DNA from: a virus
Reading direction: 5' to 3' (one strand)
UHGV virus genome: UHGV-0208881
Length of the DNA stretch: 22,343 bases
In this document: piece after piece, positions 1 to 22,343 of the stretch
Layout of the letters: each line of letters begins with the position of its first letter
Numbering within the stretch: position 1 is the stretch's first letter
Made by a program: the position numbers and the translations under genes
The notes under the pieces: generated by a model
The model's database searches: none
Seen by the model: only the letters and a program-made list of their open reading frames with translations
Told to the model about the DNA's origin: nothing

Positions 1-1
1 T

Positions 2-37
2 AATAAGCAACCTCCTCTGTTAGGAGGTTGCTTATTA
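2..37 (-). terminator. Perfect 16-bp inverted repeat (stem TAATAAGCAACCTCCT, 5-nt loop) about 30 nt downstream of the tailspike stop; probable end-of-late-operon hairpin, with any U-tract lying beyond the window edge
   Basis: Read directly: bases 1-16 are the exact reverse complement of bases 22-37. No T-run follows on the plus strand; the minus-strand tail is outside the window. Confidence 0.4.
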
Positions 38-68
38 CAATTAAAGTCTAATAATGCGCTCTAGATAT

Positions 69-2486
69 TTACAATGTAATGTTTTGCGGCATGTCTGTAT
101 TCGCCTTATTTGCTGCTGGGTACTGGCATGTAGCAGTCGAATTTGTTGTCGAGTTATCCCCGAACCACAATTTGTTCTGTGACGCTATCCCTGACACTGC
201 AGATCCAGAGCACTGAATGACGTTAATTGCATCCTTAAACATGTTGTCAGCAATTCTGATATTCTCATACTGTGAAAGCCATGGAGTTGCTCCATCATCT
301 ATCAGCATTGTTGCATTTCCTGCCGTTCCAGGGGTAGATGATGATATATAGTTTCTAGAAAATTCTGCATAACTAGTTCCTGTTGCTTTTGATACCCCCG
401 TTTGTAATTGATCAAACAAAAAACCGCCTATCTGGATGTTGCCTCTTACAATAAGGGACCTTGGTGTATATCCTGCCGGATGGAATTTAACAACTCGAGT
501 GCCACAATTATAGAACTTGTTTTCTATAAAAGAAGCAAGGCAATTTGATGAGCACTTAATCCTGATTAAAGATGGTCCATTTGTGAACTCATTTCCTGTT
601 AATGAAATAAAATTCATTAAACCGACATTAGTGGATGTCATAACATCAATGAATGGCATTAAGGAAAAACCTGAGTAATAAGAAACTTTGTTATCTATTA
701 CTCTTAGCTCTGTTGCTGCCGATCCTGTTGCAAAGTTGATATTTGAAATATTGCAATTAGATATTTTTATTCTATTAAAATTTCCAACAGCGGCAAAACC
801 AACTGATGATGTTGAGTCAGATCTAAGTGTTGCACCATTGAATTCAATGCCACTGTTTGATGATATGTTTGATGAATCTTGAGCAAACATGAATGTTGTT
901 CCAGTAGTGGCAATTACCCCGCCAATTATCTTAAATTCACAATTGCTCATTTGCGCGTAATTGGTCATGAACAATGGTGCTATCATAGTGTTATTATTAA
1001 GTGATATAATAGCAGACTCAATAACAACACCAGGAGTCCCAATTAACATAATGCGATCATAAGCTCTGATGGTGTTACCAGAAGCAACAAGAGATCGCAT
1101 CCACCCTGTATCTATCCAAGGAGTTGTTGATGTACCAGGTACAATATGAATGCCAACACCTTGAGTTTGTATATTATTTCCAGAGACAGTAATCTGCCCC
1201 CAAGGAATATTTCCGTTTGATCCTGGCATATCAAGAACAATTGCGTTATCTAAAACGTCAATATTGTTACCTATAATTGATAAACGTGTAAATCCACAGC
1301 GACCTTTTATACATCCATTGCCTCTGGTATTAACTCTATTCTTCAGTGAGTTTCCAATTACAGCGATATCTTCAACCAAAGCTCCCTCGCCTGTTGCATC
1401 CCATGTGGCTCCAGCGGTGTACACAGCGTGATCATACCATCCATCCATTGAATTGCCTTGGATGCGAATATTGCGCATATTGCCACCGATGCATGATCCA
1501 GGTGAGTCATAGAACACGCAATCAAATATCAGAACGCCACCGAGTGAGTATCGGTGATCAGACCAAGTGACATTAGGCACTTGTGTTTTAACCCCATCAG
1601 GGGTGTTGTCATATGGTTCAGCGTTTGTCGGACATACATCTATATATCGTGTTTGGTCAGGAATAGATGTACCTGAGCCAGAAGCACCAACCTCCATGTT
1701 TCTGGCATTTCCATCAAATCTTAGGCCGTGAATAGAGATGCTTCCAGTTGCTCCTGACGCAACCAGCAAAATATTTGAACGGTCCTGGTTAGGGTCAATA
1801 TCTGTAGTTGAACCTGTTACAAAATGTGACCGCTGACTTCTGACGAGCGTTGCCCCTCCATCACCCCAAATAGATGTGCATCCTGTCCATACGTTTACCT
1901 TTGCATCAAACACATAGTCTCCAGGAGGGAAAAATACACCACAACCTTTTTCTGCTGCCTCATTAACAGCGAGTTGAACAGATGCGTTGACGTATTTAGT
2001 TCTATCTCTTGCAAATACTGATGCCATTTCATCATCAGTCATATATTTTGTAGCCAGAATACTTGGTGTCTTCTCTACATATTCATCAAGTGTTCCATAT
2101 CGGGTGTTTACAAGAGAACCATTGCCATTAGCTAATTCAAGGCGCAACTGGTCAGGATCGTATTTCAGTACATTAGGATAATAGAACTGCTGTGCCCCGT
2201 ACGCATCATAAACAGCCATAGAATGGCCTTGCACAGTTACGAACTTGGCAATCTGCCCGTTATATACAGGATATCCTGCAGCGTTAATGATGATTGGTTG
2301 CGAAACAGGAACGTGAGAACCATCTTCGTTCTCTATATAAACCTGAATCTGGTTTTCAGGATTTACCGGGTCAGTGTCAATTTTACCGATATAAATTTTT
2401 CCATTGGCTACGGCTTTAAAAGAACGCGCCATAGTGAAGAGTTGCGAAGGCATACTCACTACAACATTGGCTGTAATGTCTGTCAT
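69..2486 (-). CDS. Tailspike protein: P22 gp9-like head-binding N-terminal domain (about 115 aa) fused to a different right-handed beta-helix (pectate-lyase-like) receptor-binding/glycanase domain
   Basis: 805-aa ORF. N-terminus [11 protein letters not shown]...VLKYDPDQ matches remembered P22 tailspike head-binding domain; remainder is rich in GN/IxGN repeats typical of beta-helix tailspikes and does not resemble the P22 endorhamnosidase body. Last gene of the operon. SD GGAG upstream of ATG. Confidence 0.85.
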
Positions 2487-16766: not shown

Positions 16767-16946
16767 TCAGGTTAAGGACTCTTTCGCGCCTTCAATCAGT
16801 TGCTGCTTCAGCAATTCGAGTGTGCCAATCGCCTCGCATAAACTGATTTCACCATCGTAATCATGGATGACGCTTTCCAGCCTCTCGTATAGCTCTTGAG
16901 TAATTGGGAATTTCTTCTCCTTACCCAAATTGATTACGCGGCTCAC
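16767..16946 (-). CDS. Possible small ORF (59 aa, GTG start) between the 80-aa ORF and the small-terminase gene; not in the ORF track
   Basis: Hand translation of the minus strand: GTG at 16946 preceded by GGAG about 6 nt upstream, 1 nt after the TGA of the upstream ORF; product VSRVINLGKEKKFPITQELYERLESVIHDYDGEISLCEAIGTLELLKQQLIEGAKESLT, stop TGA at 16767-16769. Fills an otherwise empty 198-bp gap. Confidence 0.3.
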   Translation of the reverse strand: MSRVINLGKEKKFPITQELYERLESVIHDYDGEISLCEAIGTLELLKQQLIEGAKESLT

Positions 16947-16947
16947 A

Positions 16948-17190
16948 TCATGCTCCGGTGGTGAACAGGTCTAACGCTTCCTTCGATTTACGCACCGCTT
17001 CAAATGTGCGGATCGTGATATCTGAATTAGCGCCACCTGACTGGAAGTGAATTTTGAATAGCTCAAGCTTCAGTTCGTCAGTGCCAATGAACTGAAATGC
17101 TTCCTCTGCGGCTGCGTTCTGGTTCATGACCAGCTTGTAAATCTCTAACTGGAATTTCTGTTCTTCAGTCATGGGAATAATCTCTGCCAT
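16948..17190 (-). CDS. Hypothetical small protein (80 aa), function unknown
   Basis: ORF with GGAGCC SD about 6 nt upstream of ATG; acidic, helical-looking sequence; co-oriented with the late operon. Confidence 0.55.
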   Translation of the reverse strand: MAEIIPMTEEQKFQLEIYKLVMNQNAAAEEAFQFIGTDELKLELFKIHFQSGGANSDITIRTFEAVRKSKEALDLFTTGA

Positions 17191-17215
17191 TGTTGGCTCC
17201 GTTTATCCGTTAAAA

Positions 17216-17237
17216 GGGATATCAGTTAAGTTATCCC
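17216..17237 (-). terminator. Weak candidate hairpin (GGGATA-N10-TATCCC) followed by TTTT on the minus strand, about 25 nt upstream of the 80-aa ORF start
   Basis: Perfect 6-bp inverted repeat read from sequence; only four T follow on the minus strand, so terminator function is uncertain. Confidence 0.25.
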
Positions 17238-17523
17238 GTGTAGGGTATAAGCCATTATCAAAGCCACTCTGTAGGGAATGGCTTTTGTGATGGCATCACT
17301 TACTCTTTACGCTGCTATCCCACTCATCCCGGAATTTTGATGGGTTATTGAAACCTTCTGCTGACATAACAACTCCTTCAATGTTTGGCTGAAATTAGGA
17401 TGTCTTTCCATCAGTCCGCCACCACAAAGAATCTTTTTTGCCATAAGGCAGGAGGTTCATCTTTCAGTGGCTGCCAGTGTTATTTCCCCACTTACTGGCT
17501 TGGGTTGTTTCGCTGTACTGCCG

Positions 17524-18066
17524 TTAATTAGTGAGTCCGGGGATTATGGTTTGCCCGTGCTGTTCAAGGCGTTCAATTCTCGCCAGTAGCTGAGGCTTCT
17601 TAATTTTTCCCCAGCGATTAAGCAGTCGACCTGACATGCTGGCAACATCCTTCTCTTTCATGTACTCCAGCATTACGGCATTTCTCTCTTCTTCAAATTG
17701 ACGATGACCAACCTGAAGCATGGCGTACATCCAGTTAAATGCGTTGATGTAAGCAATTTTGATACGCATTGCTTCTTTTTTGGTGTAGGACATAACCAAA
17801 AGCATCAACCCATCCTTGCGGAGACGGTAGAATTTTTGCGGCTTACCATTCTGTAACTCATTGTTTTTATAGCAAAGCTCAAAGTTGAGCTTTGTATCAA
17901 ACTCAGGAGGGCAAGCTTCTATGGTTCGTTCAATGTCACGAACTACGTTCTTCGGCAGCTTTCCAAATGCTTTTGCCACCATAAAAGAATCTGTAACCGG
18001 ATCGTTGTTTGCCACAAAAATCAGATCTCGGAAATCAATGCCGTTAACGATAGTTGGATAATGCAT
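17524..18066 (-). CDS. rha: Rha-family phage regulatory protein (antirepressor-like)
   Basis: 180-aa ORF. Motifs VTDSFMVAKAFGK...NVVRDIE and KDGLMLLVMSYTKKEAMRIKIAYINAFNWM fit the phage pRha domain consensus as I remember it. Sits between Rz and terminase, as P22 Rha does. Confidence 0.8.
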   Translation of the reverse strand: MHYPTIVNGIDFRDLIFVANNDPVTDSFMVAKAFGKLPKNVVRDIERTIEACPPEFDTKLNFELCYKNNELQNGKPQKFYRLRKDGLMLLVMSYTKKEAMRIKIAYINAFNWMYAMLQVGHRQFEEERNAVMLEYMKEKDVASMSGRLLNRWGKIKKPQLLARIERLEQHGQTIIPGLTN

Positions 18067-18269: not shown

Positions 18270-18707
18270 TTATTTCAGGCACTGAGTCCTGATGTACTCC
18301 TGTAGGTAGTTAACCTGCGCGGTTATCCTGTCGATTCCACTTCGGAGACGGTAATAATTGAGTTCAGCATCTGCTGTAAGTCTTGGGCTTTCTCCATCGC
18401 CCATGCCGCTGGCTCCGGTCGTTGACTTTGCACAGGTGGCGGCGACTTGCAGGCGCTTACGCCCAGCAGAAACATCAGCACGGAGACTTTCGATAGTCGC
18501 GTTAGCATCAGCAAGCTCCTTTGTGTATCTGGCGTCGAGTTCTGCTACGTCACGTTGACGCTCCTGCATGTCAGCGATTATGGATGTGGCTTTATCGCGC
18601 TGCTCTTTGTAGGTCATGGCGTTATCACGGTAATGATTAACAGCCCATGACAGACAGACGATGATGCAGATAACCAGAGCGGAGATAATCGCGGTTACTC
18701 TGCTCAT
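18270..18707 (-). CDS. Rz: Rz-type inner-membrane spanin (i-spanin), 145 aa
   Basis: N-terminus [30 protein letters not shown] (TM segment) as in lambda Rz / P22 gp15; start overlaps the R stop (ATGA). Beyond about residue 35 it differs from lambda Rz as I remember it, and the 145-aa length equals P22 gp15. Confidence 0.85.
18323..18514 (-). CDS. Rz1: Rz1-type outer-membrane lipoprotein spanin (o-spanin), embedded in the +1 frame of Rz
   Basis: 63-aa ORF wholly inside Rz in a different frame; signal peptide [22 protein letters not shown] with lipobox ending in Cys, then a Pro-rich mature region ([13 protein letters not shown]). Confidence 0.75.
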
Positions 18708-19180
18708 ACCTCAATCTCTCTGACCGTTCCGCCTGCTTCTTTGAATTTTGCAATCAGGCTGTCAGCCTTATGCTCGAACTGACCATAACCAGCGCCCGGC
18801 AGTGAAGCCCAGATATTGCTGCAACGGTCGATTGCCTGACGGATATCACCGCGATCAATCATCGGTAAAGCGCCACGCTCTTTAATCTGCTGTAGTGCAA
18901 CAGCGTCCTGACTTTTGGAAGAGAAGTCTTTCAGGCCAAGTTGCTTGCGGTAGGCATCCCACCAACGGGAAAGAAGCTGGTAACGTCCGGCTGCTGTTGA
19001 TTTGAGTTTTGGGTTTAGCGTGACAAGTTTGCGAGGGTGATCTGAGTAATCAGTGAATAGCTCCCCGCCAACAATGACGTCATAACCATGATTTCTGGTT
19101 TTCTGTCGTCCGTTATCAGTTCCCTCTGACCACGCCAGCATATCGAGGAACGCCTTACGTTGATTATTGATTTCCACCAT
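18704..19180 (-). CDS. R: Endolysin, lambda R-type lytic transglycosylase
   Basis: 158-aa [42 protein letters not shown]...; essentially identical to lambda R as I remember it. Start overlaps the S gene 3' end. Confidence 0.95.
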
Positions 19181-19487
19181 CTTCTACTCCGGCTTTTTTA
19201 GCAGCGAAGCGTTTGATAAGCGAACCAATCGAGTCAGTACCGATGTAGCCGATAAACACGCTCGTTATATAAGCGAGATTGCTACTTAGTCCGGCGAAGT
19301 CGAGAAGGTCACGAATGAACCAGGCGATAATGGCGCACATCGTTGCGTCGATTACTGTTTTTGTAAACGCACCGCCATTATATCTGCCGCGAAGGTACGC
19401 CATTGCAAACGCAAGGATTGCCCCGATGCCTTGTTCCTTTGCCGCGAGAATGGCGGCTAACAGGTCATGTTTTTCTGGCATCTTCAT
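19164..19487 (-). CDS. S: Holin / antiholin, lambda S-type with dual start (S107 from Met1, S105 from Met3)
   Basis: 107-aa [37 protein letters not shown]...; the Met-Lys-Met dual-start motif and sequence match lambda S. Confidence 0.95.
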
Positions 19488-19507
19488 GTCTTACCCCCAA
19501 TAAGGGG
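19488..19507 (-). promoter_or_regulatory. sdi-type stem-loop and SD upstream of the S dual start
   Basis: Minus strand CCCC-TTATT-GGGGG-TAAGAC-ATG-AAG-ATG; the stem-loop abutting the ribosome-binding region is the arrangement known in lambda to set the S107:S105 ratio. Confidence 0.5.
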
Positions 19508-19884
19508 ATTTGCTCTATTTAATTAGGAATAAGGTCGATTACTGATAGAACAAATCCAGGCTACTGTGTTTAGTAATCAGATTTGTTCGTGACCGATATG
19601 CACGGGCAAAACGGCAGGAGGTTGTTAGCGCAACCTCTTGCCACCCGCTTTCACGAAGGTCATGTGTAGAAGGCCGCAGCATAACTATCACTGATGAATT
19701 CAGGATAGCCAGTGGCTACGGCTCAGTTTGGGTTGTGCTGTTGCTGGGCGGCGATGACGCCTGTACGCATTTGTTGATCCGGTTCTGCTTCCGGTATTCG
19801 CTTAATTCAGCACAACGGAAAGAGCACTCGGTGCATTTAAGCCAAGCCCCATAAGGGAGAATGCTCTTACCTGTTGCACAGATA

Positions 19885-19941
19885 TAAAAAATCCCGAAAC
19901 CGTTATGCAGGCTCTAACTATTACCTGCGAACTGTTTCGGG
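19885..19941 (-). terminator. tR'-type intrinsic terminator of the short pR' transcript
   Basis: Minus strand CCCGAAAC...GTTTCGGG (with inner GCAGG/CCTGC stem) followed by ATTTTTTAT, about 194 nt downstream of the pR' start as in lambda. Confidence 0.7.
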
Positions 19942-20078
19942 ATTGCATTTTGCAGACCTCTCAGCCTGCGATGGTTGGAGTTCCAGACGATACGTCGAAG
20001 TGACCAACTAGGCGGAATCGGTAGTAAGCGCCGCCTCTTTTCATCTCACTACCACAACGAGCGAATTAACCCATCGTT
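19885..20078 (-). ncRNA. Lambda 6S-type short late leader transcript (pR' to tR', about 194 nt)
   Basis: Bounded by the pR' -10 at 20085-20090 (start about 7 nt downstream) and the tR' U-tract; sequence matches the lambda pR'-tR' region as I remember it. Transcript ends are inferred. Confidence 0.55.
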
Positions 20079-20113
20079 GGGTCAAATTTACCCAACTTTA
20101 TTCAATAAGTCAA
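20060..20113 (-). promoter_or_regulatory. Late promoter pR' with Q-utilisation (qut) site
   Basis: Minus strand TTGACT (-35, 20113-20108), 17-bp spacer, TAAATT (-10, 20090-20085), then TGACCCAACGATGGG pause region; matches lambda pR'/qut layout, about 40 bp downstream of the Q stop. Confidence 0.8.
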
Positions 20114-20155
20114 TATCATGCCGTTAATATGTTGCCATCCGTGGCAATCATGCTG

Positions 20156-20779
20156 CTAACGTGTGACCGCATTCAAAATGTTGTCTGCGATTGACTCTTC
20201 TTTGTGGCATTGCACCACCAGAGCGTCATACAGCGGCTTAACAGTGCGTGACCAAGTGGGTTGGGTAAGGTTTGGGATTAACATCGTCACAGCGCGATAT
20301 GCTGCGCTTGCTGGCATCCTTGAATAGCCGACGCCTTTGCATCTTCCGCACTCTTTCTCGACAACTCTCCCCAACTGCTCTGTTTTGGCTATATCAACCG
20401 CACGGCCTGTACCGTGGCAATCTCTGCATCTTGCGCCCGGCGTCGCGGCACTACGGCAATAATCCGCATAAGCGAATGTTGCGAGCACTTGCAGTACCTT
20501 TGCCTTAGTATTTCCTTCGAGCTTTGCCACACCACGGTATTTCCCCGATACCTTGTGTGCAAATTGCATCAGATAGTTGATAGCCTTTTGTTTGTCGTTC
20601 TGGCTGAGTTCATGCTTACCGCAGAATGCAGCCATTCCGAATCCGGCTTGTGATTGTGCCATCCCCATAGCAGCCATCACATCAGTACCGGAAAGAGAGT
20701 CAGAAGCCGTGGCCCGTGGTGAGTCGCTCATCATCGGGCTTTTTGGCGAATGAAATTTAGCTACGCTTTCGAGTCTCAT
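20156..20779 (-). CDS. Q: Late-gene antiterminator Q (lambda type)
   Basis: 207-aa ORF MRLESVAKFHSPKSPMMSDSPRATASD...CRDCHGTGRAVD...CGRCKGVGYS...; essentially identical to lambda Q as I remember it, including the zinc-binding Cys cluster. Confidence 0.95.
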   Translation of the reverse strand: MRLESVAKFHSPKSPMMSDSPRATASDSLSGTDVMAAMGMAQSQAGFGMAAFCGKHELSQNDKQKAINYLMQFAHKVSGKYRGVAKLEGNTKAKVLQVLATFAYADYCRSAATPGARCRDCHGTGRAVDIAKTEQLGRVVEKECGRCKGVGYSRMPASAAYRAVTMLIPNLTQPTWSRTVKPLYDALVVQCHKEESIADNILNAVTR

Positions 20780-20964
20780 CGTCTTCCCTTTTTGCCTGGC
20801 GTGACCATCAGGACGCCGTTAACGATTACGTGACGCTCGCCTTTGCTGTCTCGGTTGTACTTGAGCACTGTTCCTCTTGCGCAGGAAAGCATCCTCGCCA
20901 CTTCGGTCTGATTGCCTCGTGTCTGGATAAGAAGCTCTGGTATCGTTTGAATTGTGGCGTTCAT
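20776..20964 (-). CDS. ninH: NinH-like small DNA-binding protein
   Basis: 62-aa ORF; TIPELLIQTRGNQTEVARMLSCARGTVLKYNRD resembles lambda NinH (Fis-like HTH) as I remember it. 4-nt overlaps with both neighbours, immediately upstream of Q. Confidence 0.8.
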   Translation of the reverse strand: MNATIQTIPELLIQTRGNQTEVARMLSCARGTVLKYNRDSKGERHVIVNGVLMVTPGKKGRR

Positions 20965-21323
20965 ACGTTCTCCAGTTCGGTGATTTTTATTCCAAGCCTT
21001 CCGCCTGGTACTTTCACACCACGAATTACGCGAATGTCATCGAATTGCTCGTCGTCTTCCGCAAATCCGGCGTGGATAAGGGAGTCGAGTAATCCTTTCA
21101 GGATGTTATCGAGGTCGCGGCGGCGGGAGTCTGGAACGTCTGCGATGACTTTGATGCGGAGTCGTGATTTGGTGAAAATGTCTAACTTGAGTTGGCGGAT
21201 GATTTGCTGAACGTCTTTTCGGTATTTCTGGCCTTTATCGCTGATGTAATATTGGCTTCCCCGTCTTCGCCAGTAGGTGTTCACCGACGGCGGGTATGGA
21301 AGCACAAACTGATATTCGTTCAT
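20961..21323 (-). CDS. rusA: RusA-family Holliday junction resolvase
   Basis: 120-aa ORF (same length as E. coli RusA). Motifs LPYPPSVNTYW and DVPDSRRRDLDNILKGLLDSL match the RusA catalytic Asp-containing region. Confidence 0.9.
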   Translation of the reverse strand: MNEYQFVLPYPPSVNTYWRRRGSQYYISDKGQKYRKDVQQIIRQLKLDIFTKSRLRIKVIADVPDSRRRDLDNILKGLLDSLIHAGFAEDDEQFDDIRVIRGVKVPGGRLGIKITELENV

Positions 21324-21610
21324 GACTTAATCTTCCCCTCCTTCAGCAGTATCGCCTGCGTCCTGATTACGCCTTCGAGGTGGTAAAGTCTGGCGTCTTT
21401 GTTGTCGAGGTTATGGGTGCGTCGGTCGATTTCATCGTGACACGCGCTACAAGCCCATGCGCCGATCAGGTCGTCAGGCTTCATTCCAGTTCCGCAAATT
21501 CCAGCCATCCGGTAATGTGCCAGAACTGTAGTTTCAGGGTTGCCATTGCATACGCCGTAAATACGTACCTGGCATTCTCTGCCGCGCGCTTCTTTGCGTA
21601 GGTTAGCCAT
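21320..21610 (-). CDS. YbcO-like protein (DUF1364 family, Cys-rich putative metal-binding nuclease)
   Basis: 96-aa ORF; ARGRECQVRI.GVCNGNPET.VLAH ... ACSACHDEIDRRTH resembles E. coli DLP12 YbcO as I remember it; sits directly upstream of rusA as in DLP12. Confidence 0.8.
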   Translation of the reverse strand: MANLRKEARGRECQVRIYGVCNGNPETTVLAHYRMAGICGTGMKPDDLIGAWACSACHDEIDRRTHNLDNKDARLYHLEGVIRTQAILLKEGKIKS

Positions 21611-21815
21611 TTACCTTCCCTCGCAACTGAAGAATTGACTGAAGGTCTTTTTTAATAAATATGCGAGTGCGAATTGAGCAGTAGTTTTCCTTCATTCTGG
21701 CGTAGTAATAGTCCTTTCGTTGTTTAAGCTTGTTGGCATCCGCTGTCATCCAGTCTTTTACAGCAAACTTAATTAACCAGCGGTGGCAGAGATACCATTT
21801 CAGGTAATCACTCAT
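21603..21815 (-). CDS. Hypothetical small basic protein (70 aa), nin region
   Basis: ORF whose ATG overlaps the NinD stop (ATGAGTGA) and whose stop overlaps the YbcO-like start by 8 nt. Sequence not recognised; does not match lambda NinE as I remember it. Confidence 0.5.
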   Translation of the reverse strand: MSDYLKWYLCHRWLIKFAVKDWMTADANKLKQRKDYYYARMKENYCSIRTRIFIKKDLQSILQLRGKVNG

Positions 21816-21984
21816 CGTCTTCTTCCTCGTACATTGAGCTATTCGGATCGCTCATCAGTTCTGCGCAGCAGTGCTCACACACGTGAACTTCCAGCACATG
21901 CAGCTTCTGACCGCAGTTAGCGCACGTTAAAGCTCGCTCGGCGCTTTCTTTCTGGTATTGAAGGGATTGGGATGGGCTAAGCAT
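21808..21984 (-). CDS. ninD: NinD-like zinc-ribbon protein (58 aa); not in the ORF track
   Basis: Hand translation of the minus strand: MLSPSQSLQYQKESAERALTCANCGQKLHVLEVHVCEHCCAELMSDPNSSMYEEEDDE, closely matching lambda NinD as I remember it; CxxC...CxxCC motif. Start overlaps the upstream stop (TAATG). Confidence 0.8.
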   Translation of the reverse strand: MLSPSQSLQYQKESAERALTCANCGQKLHVLEVHVCEHCCAELMSDPNSSMYEEEDDE

Positions 21985-22343
21985 TATTGGATTCTCTGCA
22001 TCATGAGAAAGACAATCATGGCGGCGCGGAGGGGATTTTCATGTATAGCTCGCTTAGATTTACAGTAGGCCACACCGCGTGCACCCCACTCGTCTTCATC
22101 GAGATTGATAATGCTAATCCTGTATTTTTCAATAATCGGCCATGCGTCTGCTGGATTTGCGCATGGGTTAAAGGATCCGCGCTCAACTTCTACTTCAACT
22201 GCGTCTCCGTTTACAATGTCTCCCTCAAATGAGATAAACACCATCGCGCCATTCTCACCTTCTTTGTAATCCGGTGATCCGTTATGAATGGCTTCGAATA
22301 CCGCCACGTTAATTTCAAAATCACTTAACTGTGAATAATCCAT
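21984..22343 (-). CDS. Hypothetical nin-region protein (119 aa, possibly NinX/DUF2591-like); start codon lies at the window edge so the N-terminus may be incomplete
   Basis: ORF 21984..22343 with its ATG as the last three bases of the window; family assignment is a weak recollection only. Confidence 0.45.
   Translation of the reverse strand: MDYSQLSDFEINVAVFEAIHNGSPDYKEGENGAMVFISFEGDIVNGDAVEVEVERGSFNPCANPADAWPIIEKYRISIINLDEDEWGARGVAYCKSKRAIHENPLRAAMIVFLMMQRIQ

Follow-up and report, generated by a model that had tools for sequence, protein, structure and literature searches.

The nin regions of lambdoid phages share a general architectural property, namely successive genes packed through ATGA junctions (PMC8022706), and the occurrence in them of either rap or rusA is a published alternative (PMC4118853). 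Phage lambda displays the order ninB-C-D-E-F-G-H-I followed by Q, and its NinH has been characterised as a Fis-like protein (PMC7166090). P22 has ninX, ninF, ninG-ninY, ninH and the Q-type gene 23. The DLP12 prophage of E. coli K-12 presents ybcN-ninE-ybcO-rusA-ylcG-quuD; it stands here as a proxy for phage 82, on the ground that the neighbouring ybcN is 97% identical between the two (PMC4118853). Further, phages HK620, HK022 and N7 carry the series ninF...ybcO(hkbD)-rus-ninH-Q. YbcO (DUF1364) itself has been classed as a His-Me finger protein and a neighbour of RusA, with a role in recombination put forward as a hypothesis only (PMC5714182).

Against this backdrop, we analysed a nin-type locus at one end of the viral genome UHGV-0208881 (the whole 22,343-nt stretch is hereinafter the window). 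With a probability of about 0.9, we read the interval as the ninR region's promoter-distal half in a temperate, P22-like phage or prophage of enterobacteria, whose late-control and lysis block (Q-S-R) is lambda-type and which shows a p70-ybcO-rusA-ninH cassette exchange, p70 being a gene for a 70-aa protein. The gene identities rest on Pfam and PHROG matches well above threshold, sequence matches to solved structures, and comparison with the proteins of lambda, P22 and DLP12.

Gene order and relatives of the locus

The locus is encoded on the minus strand throughout and runs ninX, ninF, p70, ybcO (DUF1364), rusA, ninH and Q, with stop/start overlaps of 1, 8, 8, 4, 4 and 4 nt. Six closely packed minus-strand genes occupy 20156-21984, and the preliminary description, which had every junction as a 1-8 nt overlap, was accurate in this respect. 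Purine-rich or Shine-Dalgarno-like stretches precede each ATG of the block; since overlapping stop and start codons are combined with such internal stretches, translational coupling across ninX-Q is likely, and coupling of this kind is described for nin regions of lambdoid phages at large (PMC8022706). These genes would be read as a single polycistronic stretch of the early-right transcript.

The closest arrangements are those of vB_EcoP-683R2 and vB_EcoP-720R6 (Escherichia) and ABTNLsp11242 (Salmonella), which cover 100% of the interval at ~97% identity, and of mEp043 (NC_019706, gp59-gp64), which covers 97% of it, again at ~97% identity. All four show the same order of ninF, the 70-aa ORF, DUF1364/HNH, RusA, NinH and Q with matching lengths and overlaps, save for ninF, which measures 177 nt here and 171 nt in mEp043. 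Unlike the window, mEp043 has ninE and not ninX directly upstream of ninF, as well as a different virion module. HK620, HK022 and N7 resemble the locus at ~96-97% identity, but where the window has p70 they carry a roi-like gene for a DNA-binding protein.

With lambda the locus shares tight packing, a junction nuclease followed by NinH, and recognisable counterparts of ninF (86.5% at the amino acid level), ninH (54%), Q (99%), S, R and PR'; lambda differs in having ninG (rap) in place of p70-ybcO-rusA and ninI between ninH and Q, and in lacking ninX. The likeness to P22 extends through ninX, ninF, a nuclease gene, ninH and the Q-type gene, whereas P22 has ninG-ninY where the window has p70-ybcO-rusA. 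In DLP12, ybcO and rusA are as long as here (96 and 120 aa) and are joined by the same ATGA overlap, its YbcO and RusA being respectively 71% and 43% identical to those of the window. However, ninE of DLP12 directly precedes ybcO, ninF, p70 and ninX are missing, ylcG stands where the window has ninH, and an antiterminator of the 82-type (quuD) is found instead of lambda Q.

Anchor genes and the extent of the exchange

The start codon of ninX (21984..22343, minus) forms the edge of the window (22343), and nin genes upstream of it, including any ninD or ninE there, fall beyond the sequence. Its 119-aa product is a DUF2591/NinX protein (Pfam PF10765, 2.7e-19) with 48% identity to P22 NinX, and the gene meets ninF at a TAATG junction with a 1-nt overlap. 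The 58-aa zinc-ribbon protein encoded next (21808..21984, minus) had earlier been labelled NinD. This label is wrong: the protein is NinF, as it matches the Pfam NinF family PF05810 (47.4 bits vs a cut-off of 27.5; E 1.8e-12) and is 86.5% identical to lambda NinF and 94.7% to P22 NinF, with no BLASTP match to NinD at E<=10 among lambda proteins or E<=1 among P22 proteins. Given that the anchor gene is NinF and not NinD, the segments that correspond to each other are ninG-ninH-ninI in lambda and p70-ybcO-rusA-ninH here, rather than lambda ninE, ninF and ninG being the part replaced, as initially proposed. Thus, ninF has to be struck from the replaced genes as it is present, while the replacement of ninG (rap) and the absence of ninI, the gene for a Ser/Thr phosphatase, hold good. 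In this regard, lambda NinI, NinG, NinE and NinD found no credible tblastn match in the 22.3-kb window (none at E<=1 for NinG and NinI), and ninH overlaps Q.

At the DNA level, homology to lambda, P22 and IME10 ends at 21813 in ninF, and homology to lambda and IME10 restarts at 20786 near Q. The breaks relative to lambda and to IME10, the closest sequenced relative, are the same two (21812/21813 and 20786/20787) and fall at gene borders; the segment that differs from lambda comprises 1,026 bp of unrelated sequence. As judged from these alignments, the lambda ninG(rap)-ninH-ninI segment is exchanged for p70-ybcO-rusA-ninH with a short ninH allele. Such an exchange would have come about by recombination at gene borders, right after ninF on the one side and, on the other, within a few bases of the Q start codon on its upstream side.

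A different account would see the locus as a decaying cryptic-prophage remnant like DLP12, in which ybcO and rusA are silent relics and ninG and ninI were lost by deletion and not by cassette exchange. Its attraction lies in the ybcO-rusA pair, which is the DLP12 arrangement, and in the fact that rusA of K-12 is expressed only with an upstream insertion (PMC4118853). We nevertheless consider decay very unlikely: none of the seven ORFs from ninX to Q is disrupted, and their lengths and overlaps are conserved; the block is also found in the plaque-forming phages mEp043, HK620, HK022 and N7; the lysis, terminase, portal, coat and tailspike region of the window is unbroken, with the remaining genes from terminase to tailspike being P22-type; and 1,026 bp of sequence unrelated to lambda is not a simple deletion. 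Hence, we favor a cassette exchange in a P22-like phage or prophage over decay.

The nuclease pair and the 70-aa protein

RusA enzymes are Mg2+-dependent dimers that resolve Holliday junctions by symmetric cleavage of the four-way structure. The 120-aa product of rusA (20961..21323, minus) is a predicted enzyme of this type, consistent with the original call: it matches Pfam PF05866 (62 bits vs a cut-off of 22.8), PHROG 34 (6e-54) and, over residues 1-119, PDB 1q8r, the crystallised E. coli enzyme (E 3.1e-26). An ungapped alignment of residues 1-119 with E. coli (DLP12) RusA, to which it is 43% identical, pairs RRRDLDNILK and AEDDEQ with RRRDLDNLQK and WLDDAQ; it retains Asp70, Asp72, Lys76 and Asp91 (E. 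coli numbering), which we take to be the catalytic acidic residues and lysine of RusA. The gene lies in the place of ninG (rap) and its product has no BLASTP match to Rap, in agreement with the suggestion that RusA for Rap is a non-orthologous swap. From its family membership and retained catalytic residues, RusA would supply branched-DNA cleavage in phage recombination, as Rap does in lambda. RusA in the place of Rap, with ninI missing and NinH next to Q, is a standard case of mosaicism in nin regions (Curtis et al.), and the RusA-type nin region seen here is a common variant that has already been catalogued.

The gene immediately upstream, ybcO (21320..21610, minus), codes for a 96-aa DUF1364 protein (Pfam PF07102, 150 bits vs a cut-off of 29.9), as had been recognised from the outset, and is a putative His-Me finger/HNH-type nuclease. 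It is 71% identical to DLP12 YbcO and matches the solved YbcO structure PDB 3g27 (E 1.9e-40); the invariant Cys and His residues of the treble-clef/HNH core are in place, an alignment of 23 family members, this protein included, having C13, C21, H32, C39, C54, C57, H58 and D59 unchanged throughout. YbcO is a near-constant neighbour upstream of RusA, and it is likely to act on DNA alongside RusA in one pathway.

This raises the question of whether Rap has its true counterpart in YbcO rather than in RusA, i.e., in a distant His-Me finger homologue that displaced it after ninF, with RusA as an added passenger. Both DUF1364/YbcO (group 7) and NinG/Rap (group 24) are placed in the His-Me finger superfamily and a recombination role has been proposed for YbcO (PMC5714182); YbcO sits after ninF/p70, where another locus (L007) has NinG; and one further locus (L168) has YbcO-RusA and NinG together. 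However, hhalign finds the YbcO and NinG profiles unrelated (probability 0.1%, E 0.41) from alignments of 23 sequences each, shallow as these are (Neff ~1.7), and Rap possesses a further zinc finger at its N-terminus as well as a region resembling an HTH (PMC5714182), for which the 96-aa YbcO has no room. Moreover, RusA occurs without detectable YbcO in 6/80 loci, and junction resolution is established for RusA as against no reported activity for YbcO. Taken together, we judge this unlikely and favor RusA as the functional replacement of Rap. As a side observation, the null result from the shallow YbcO and NinG profiles is compatible with the superfamily-level kinship proposed in PMC5714182.

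Between ninF and ybcO lies p70 (21603..21815, minus), whose 70-aa product is a basic, helical protein with a full-length match to PHROG 3973 (2.3e-52). The preliminary description had left it unrecognised, and so it remains among named families: no Pfam family scores above threshold, no NCBIfam or PADLOC family is found, and BLASTP gives no match to any nin protein of lambda, P22 or DLP12, inclusive of P22 NinY, lambda NinE, NinD and NinG, and DLP12 YlcG and NinE. In profile comparisons against NinG, hhalign gives probabilities of 0.1% for YbcO and 0.3% for p70. A GNAT_C assignment was rejected, the Pfam score being sub-threshold and taken as chance. The relatives of p70 recovered by a word-indexed search form 18 clusters at 90% identity, all unnamed, and an exhaustive HMMER profile search returned only 8 matches among 1.84 billion representative proteins; the family is a tiny one of enterobacterial phages.

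A small, unnamed family with a low-confidence AlphaFold2 model (a two-helix hairpin, pLDDT 66, pTM 0.27), and with no Pfam, NCBIfam or PADLOC family to which it can be assigned, might suggest that the ORF is not a gene at all, but a spacer or reading-frame artefact between ninF and ybcO. We regard this as extremely improbable. A 61%-identical homologue has kept both length and frame, and between the two pN is 0.25 against a pS of 0.95, at which synonymous change is saturated. The C-terminal motif DLQ[SA]ILQLRGKVNG is kept in every full-length family member aligned, and it is kept at the protein level across synonymous codon differences. Likewise, the ORF still follows a NinF-like gene and still overlaps the next gene by 8 nt even where the latter is NinG (L007), and the PHROG 3973 match runs the full length of the protein. 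These sequence comparisons indicate that p70 is a real gene under purifying selection. The idea that its C-terminus is a conserved DNA linker for recombination was rejected, as the codons differ synonymously.

In the loci examined, p70 is always found just upstream of the junction-nuclease gene, be it ybcO-rusA (the window and mEp043) or ninG (L007), and overlaps it by 8 nt wherever the overlap was measured; it is a facultative cassette of the slot that separates ninF from that gene. One might conceive of p70 as a dedicated accessory factor or regulator of the phage junction-nuclease step or, alternatively, of YbcO and RusA as an obligate two-nuclease unit instead of independent genes; we hold such proposals to be quite doubtful.

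NinH, Q and the spread of the cassette

The short ninH allele (20776..20964, minus) codes for a 62-aa member of the Fis-like DNA-binding protein family (Pfam PF06322, 81 bits vs 29.8), which is 54% identical to lambda NinH and 57% to P22 NinH and shows weak similarity to the Fis HTH; it would act as a Fis-like DNA-bending protein. It abuts Q directly, as first described, via a 4-nt ATGA overlap with no gene between them. Q (20156..20779, minus) is a lambda-type late antiterminator (Pfam Antiterm PF03589, 1.4e-56) with 99% identity to lambda Q over 207 aa. Downstream of it, and outside the swap, is a PR'-like late promoter (20085..20113, minus; TTGACT-17-TAAATT), which is part of a 2.36-kb stretch that aligns to lambda with 94% identity and whose counterpart in mEp043 is annotated as PR'/qut.

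The significance of the locus extends little beyond its correct annotation, but it is a clean example of lambdoid mosaicism: cassettes are swapped at gene borders (rap against ybcO-rusA, ninH-ninI against the short ninH, p70 against roi), while amid this exchange the junction nuclease and the Fis-like NinH remain adjacent. The questions that it touches, namely the roles of YbcO and the 70-aa protein, concern genes that are common among sequenced phages and not peculiar to the window.

A survey of 5,426 complete E. coli genomes finds the ninX-ninH stretch, at a coverage of >=80%, in no fewer than 196. Among 80 IMG/VR loci with the window-type NinH allele, RusA is directly upstream in all 80 and YbcO is present in 74, while neither NinG nor NinI is found in any; the p70 slot is held by p70 in 14 and by Roi in 33. 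Judging from these loci, ninB and ninE would be expected ahead of ninX, with ninE immediately before it. By comparison, 80 loci with the lambda NinH allele have NinI in 78 cases and NinG in 74, with YbcO-RusA in six.

Gene content and packing of the nin region

The preliminary description read this region as a lambda-type nin block with RusA and YbcO-like genes in place of NinE, NinF and NinG and with NinI missing; the observation is real and the reading essentially right, its NinD label apart, yet what it describes is textbook lambdoid mosaicism. In the order of transcription, all on the minus strand, lie ninX (21984-22343; 119 aa; Pfam NinX, 70 bits), ninF (21808-21984; 58 aa; Pfam NinF, 47.4 bits against a cut-off of 27.5), p70 (21603-21815; 70 aa; PHROG 3973, "unknown function"), ybcO (21320-21610; 96 aa; Pfam YbcO/DUF1364, 150 bits, cut-off 29.9), rusA (20961-21323; 120 aa; Pfam RusA, 62 bits, cut-off 22.8), ninH (20776-20964; 62 aa; Pfam NinH, 81 bits, cut-off 29.8) and Q (20156-20779; 207 aa; Pfam Q antiterminator, 189 bits). 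The nin-region proteins other than p70 score far over the curated Pfam cut-offs, and their PHROG matches are consistent with these identities, bearing out the RusA and YbcO-like assignments.

The interval originally singled out, 20776-21984, begins precisely with the ninH stop and closes with the start codon of the 58-aa gene. Taken then for NinD, the product of this gene is NinF: it matches the NinF family, shows 86.5% identity with lambda NinF and 94.7% with P22 NinF, and finds no match to NinD in the lambda protein comparison; further, lambda DNA homology (97%) spans 21813-21950 within the gene. Hence, NinF is kept in the window, and the proposed replacement holds for NinG alone. Searches by tblastn with lambda NinG, NinI, NinE and NinD returned nothing credible in the window, and the claimed lack of NinI stands; as the window ends at the ninX ATG, the result for ninD and ninE covers only the stretch downstream of that codon. 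In related loci (IMG/VR neighbourhoods), ninE precedes ninX or ninF.

The stop/start overlaps from ninX to Q measure 1 (TAATG), 8, 8, 4 (ATGA), 4 and 4 nt, matching the 1-8 nt first reported, and a purine-rich stretch within the upstream gene precedes each downstream start codon; it is weak at ninF and clear at the other five. Such overlaps suggest translational coupling across the nin genes. Exceptionally tight packing with ATGA overlaps has been described for the nin region "in all lambdoid phages" (phage L genome paper, PMC8022706).

The junction nuclease and its neighbours

The RusA of the window retains Asp70, Asp72, Lys76 and Asp91 (E. coli numbering), the acidic residues and lysine with catalytic roles in RusA. 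Its alignment with the E. coli RusA of known crystal structure (PDB 1q8r; E 3e-26, 43% identity) is ungapped. Judged from this alignment and the retained residues, it would resolve Holliday junctions and related branched intermediates in phage recombination, and may thereby do the job done in lambda by Rap (NinG). The associated YbcO is 71% identical to the YbcO of the DLP12 prophage (structure 3g27) and keeps the family-invariant Cys and His columns. DUF1364 has been classified as a His-Me finger domain whose typical neighbours are RusA and Q, and a recombination role has been hypothesised for it (Jablonska et al. 2017, PMC5714182). One might hence ask if YbcO, rather than RusA, is the real counterpart of Rap; this is improbable, as a profile-profile comparison of YbcO with NinG, albeit with shallow alignments, detected no relationship (probability 0.1%). 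The replacement of Rap by RusA as a non-orthologous swap, as proposed earlier, is upheld and was already published (Curtis et al.). A 117-aa E. coli protein in the protein collection carries both DUF1364 and RusA Pfam domains, and probably reflects a ybcO-rusA gene call with a frameshift or fusion.

The NinH family is Fis-like, DNA-binding and DNA-bending, and in lambda ninH lies just downstream of rap (PMC7166090). In the window ninH lies just downstream of rusA; thus, the adjacency of nuclease and NinH outlives the swap.

Exchangeable cassettes and the p70 gene

Lambda DNA homology ends at 21813, at the 3' end of ninF. It restarts at 20786, seven bases ahead of the Q start codon, and from there extends at 94% across Q, PR', orf-64, S and R. 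Between these breakpoints lie 1,026 bp with p70, ybcO, rusA and a ninH allele whose product has diverged to 54% identity with lambda NinH. Homology to IME10, overall the closest relative of the window (72% of the window matched at 96% identity), breaks at both of these points as well; the unmatched stretch in IME10, 1,443 bp, is as long as the lambda ninG-ninH-ninI segment.

We scored by tblastn the neighbours of ninH in 80 IMG/VR loci whose NinH is 95-100% identical to the short, 62-aa form of the window. RusA lies directly upstream of ninH in 80/80 and YbcO upstream of RusA in 74; between ninF and ybcO, 14 loci have p70 and 33 have Roi; downstream comes a Q of lambda type or of 82 type (quuD-like), or else a ylcG-like gene; and NinG and NinI were found in none of the 80. 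In a mirror sample of 80 loci with the lambda NinH allele, NinI comes next after NinH in 78; 74 of the loci have NinG, and six have YbcO-RusA ahead of NinH. Thus, ninI goes with the long lambda-type ninH allele and rusA with the short one, and the pattern of the nin region is one of combinatorial exchange among a few alternative cassettes. One locus of this mirror sample (IMGVR_UViG_2563366924_000002) combines p70-ybcO-rusA-ninH-ninI with a NinG gene before Q, implying that the two junction-nuclease types are not strictly mutually exclusive.

The exact arrangement of the window is already known from annotated public phage genomes and hundreds of E. coli prophages. The 20776-21984 interval is covered in one piece at ~97% identity by the Escherichia phages vB_EcoP-683R2 and vB_EcoP-720R6 and the Salmonella phage ABTNLsp11242 (100% each) and by mEp043 (97%). 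Matching records annotate the genes as NinF, hypothetical protein, YbcO/DUF1364/HNH, RusA, NinH and Q, and ninX to ninH occur in at least 196 of 5,426 complete E. coli genomes (≥80% coverage).

The 70-aa protein was rightly called unrecognised: it has no family in Pfam, NCBIfam or PADLOC, no similarity to the nin proteins of lambda, P22 or DLP12, and no profile similarity to NinG. Its family is tiny, with 18 clusters at 90% identity and eight matches among 1.84 billion representative proteins. Even so, p70 is a real gene: a homologue in a metagenomic locus (JGI 3300039960) is 61% identical and equal in length, with pN 0.25 against pS 0.95; a C-terminal motif, DLQ[SA]ILQLRGKVNG, is kept despite synonymous codon differences. 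In that locus (positions 1219-2120), a 41-aa NinF-like zinc-ribbon ORF precedes the homologue, which overlaps the downstream gene by 8 nt as in the window, though that gene is NinG and not YbcO; hence, p70 occurs independently of the RusA cassette. Homology with phage N7 breaks at 21611/21612 and 21807/21808, exactly flanking p70, in whose slot N7 has a 723-nt roi-like DNA-binding gene, making p70 a separately exchangeable cassette in itself. The gene is optional, and takes the place immediately before the junction nuclease, of whichever type that may be. Its AlphaFold2 model is a two-helix hairpin of low confidence (pLDDT 66), and our best guess, a speculative one, is that p70 serves the recombination block as a small accessory binding DNA or protein.

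The remainder of the window

The 805-aa tailspike (69-2486, minus strand) conserves an N-terminal P22-type head-binding domain (aa 1-113). For its receptor-binding part (window 1-2200), megablast gave no match among 50,697 phage records and, among the 5,426 complete E. coli genomes, just a 162-bp match at the edge, in a single genome; the closest proteins from phage records are tail spike 3 of Vi01 (ViI-like) and a KEP4 match, both at 38% identity. This divergence may point to an unusual O-antigen or capsule specificity, or to a non-E. coli host.

Between the small terminase subunit and the lysis cassette (16767-18066, minus strand) are a Rha-like regulator (180 aa; Phage_pRha and ORF11CD3 domains), an 80-aa DUF2560 protein and a 59-aa ORF that matches no Pfam family. 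The late-control and lysis block (18270-20155, minus strand) is lambda-type, comprising PR' (hexamers TTGACT-17-TAAATT at 20113-20085), orf-64 (95% identical to lambda), S (99%) and R (98%); Rz shares only 59% identity with its lambda counterpart, which indicates another mosaic joint near 18459.
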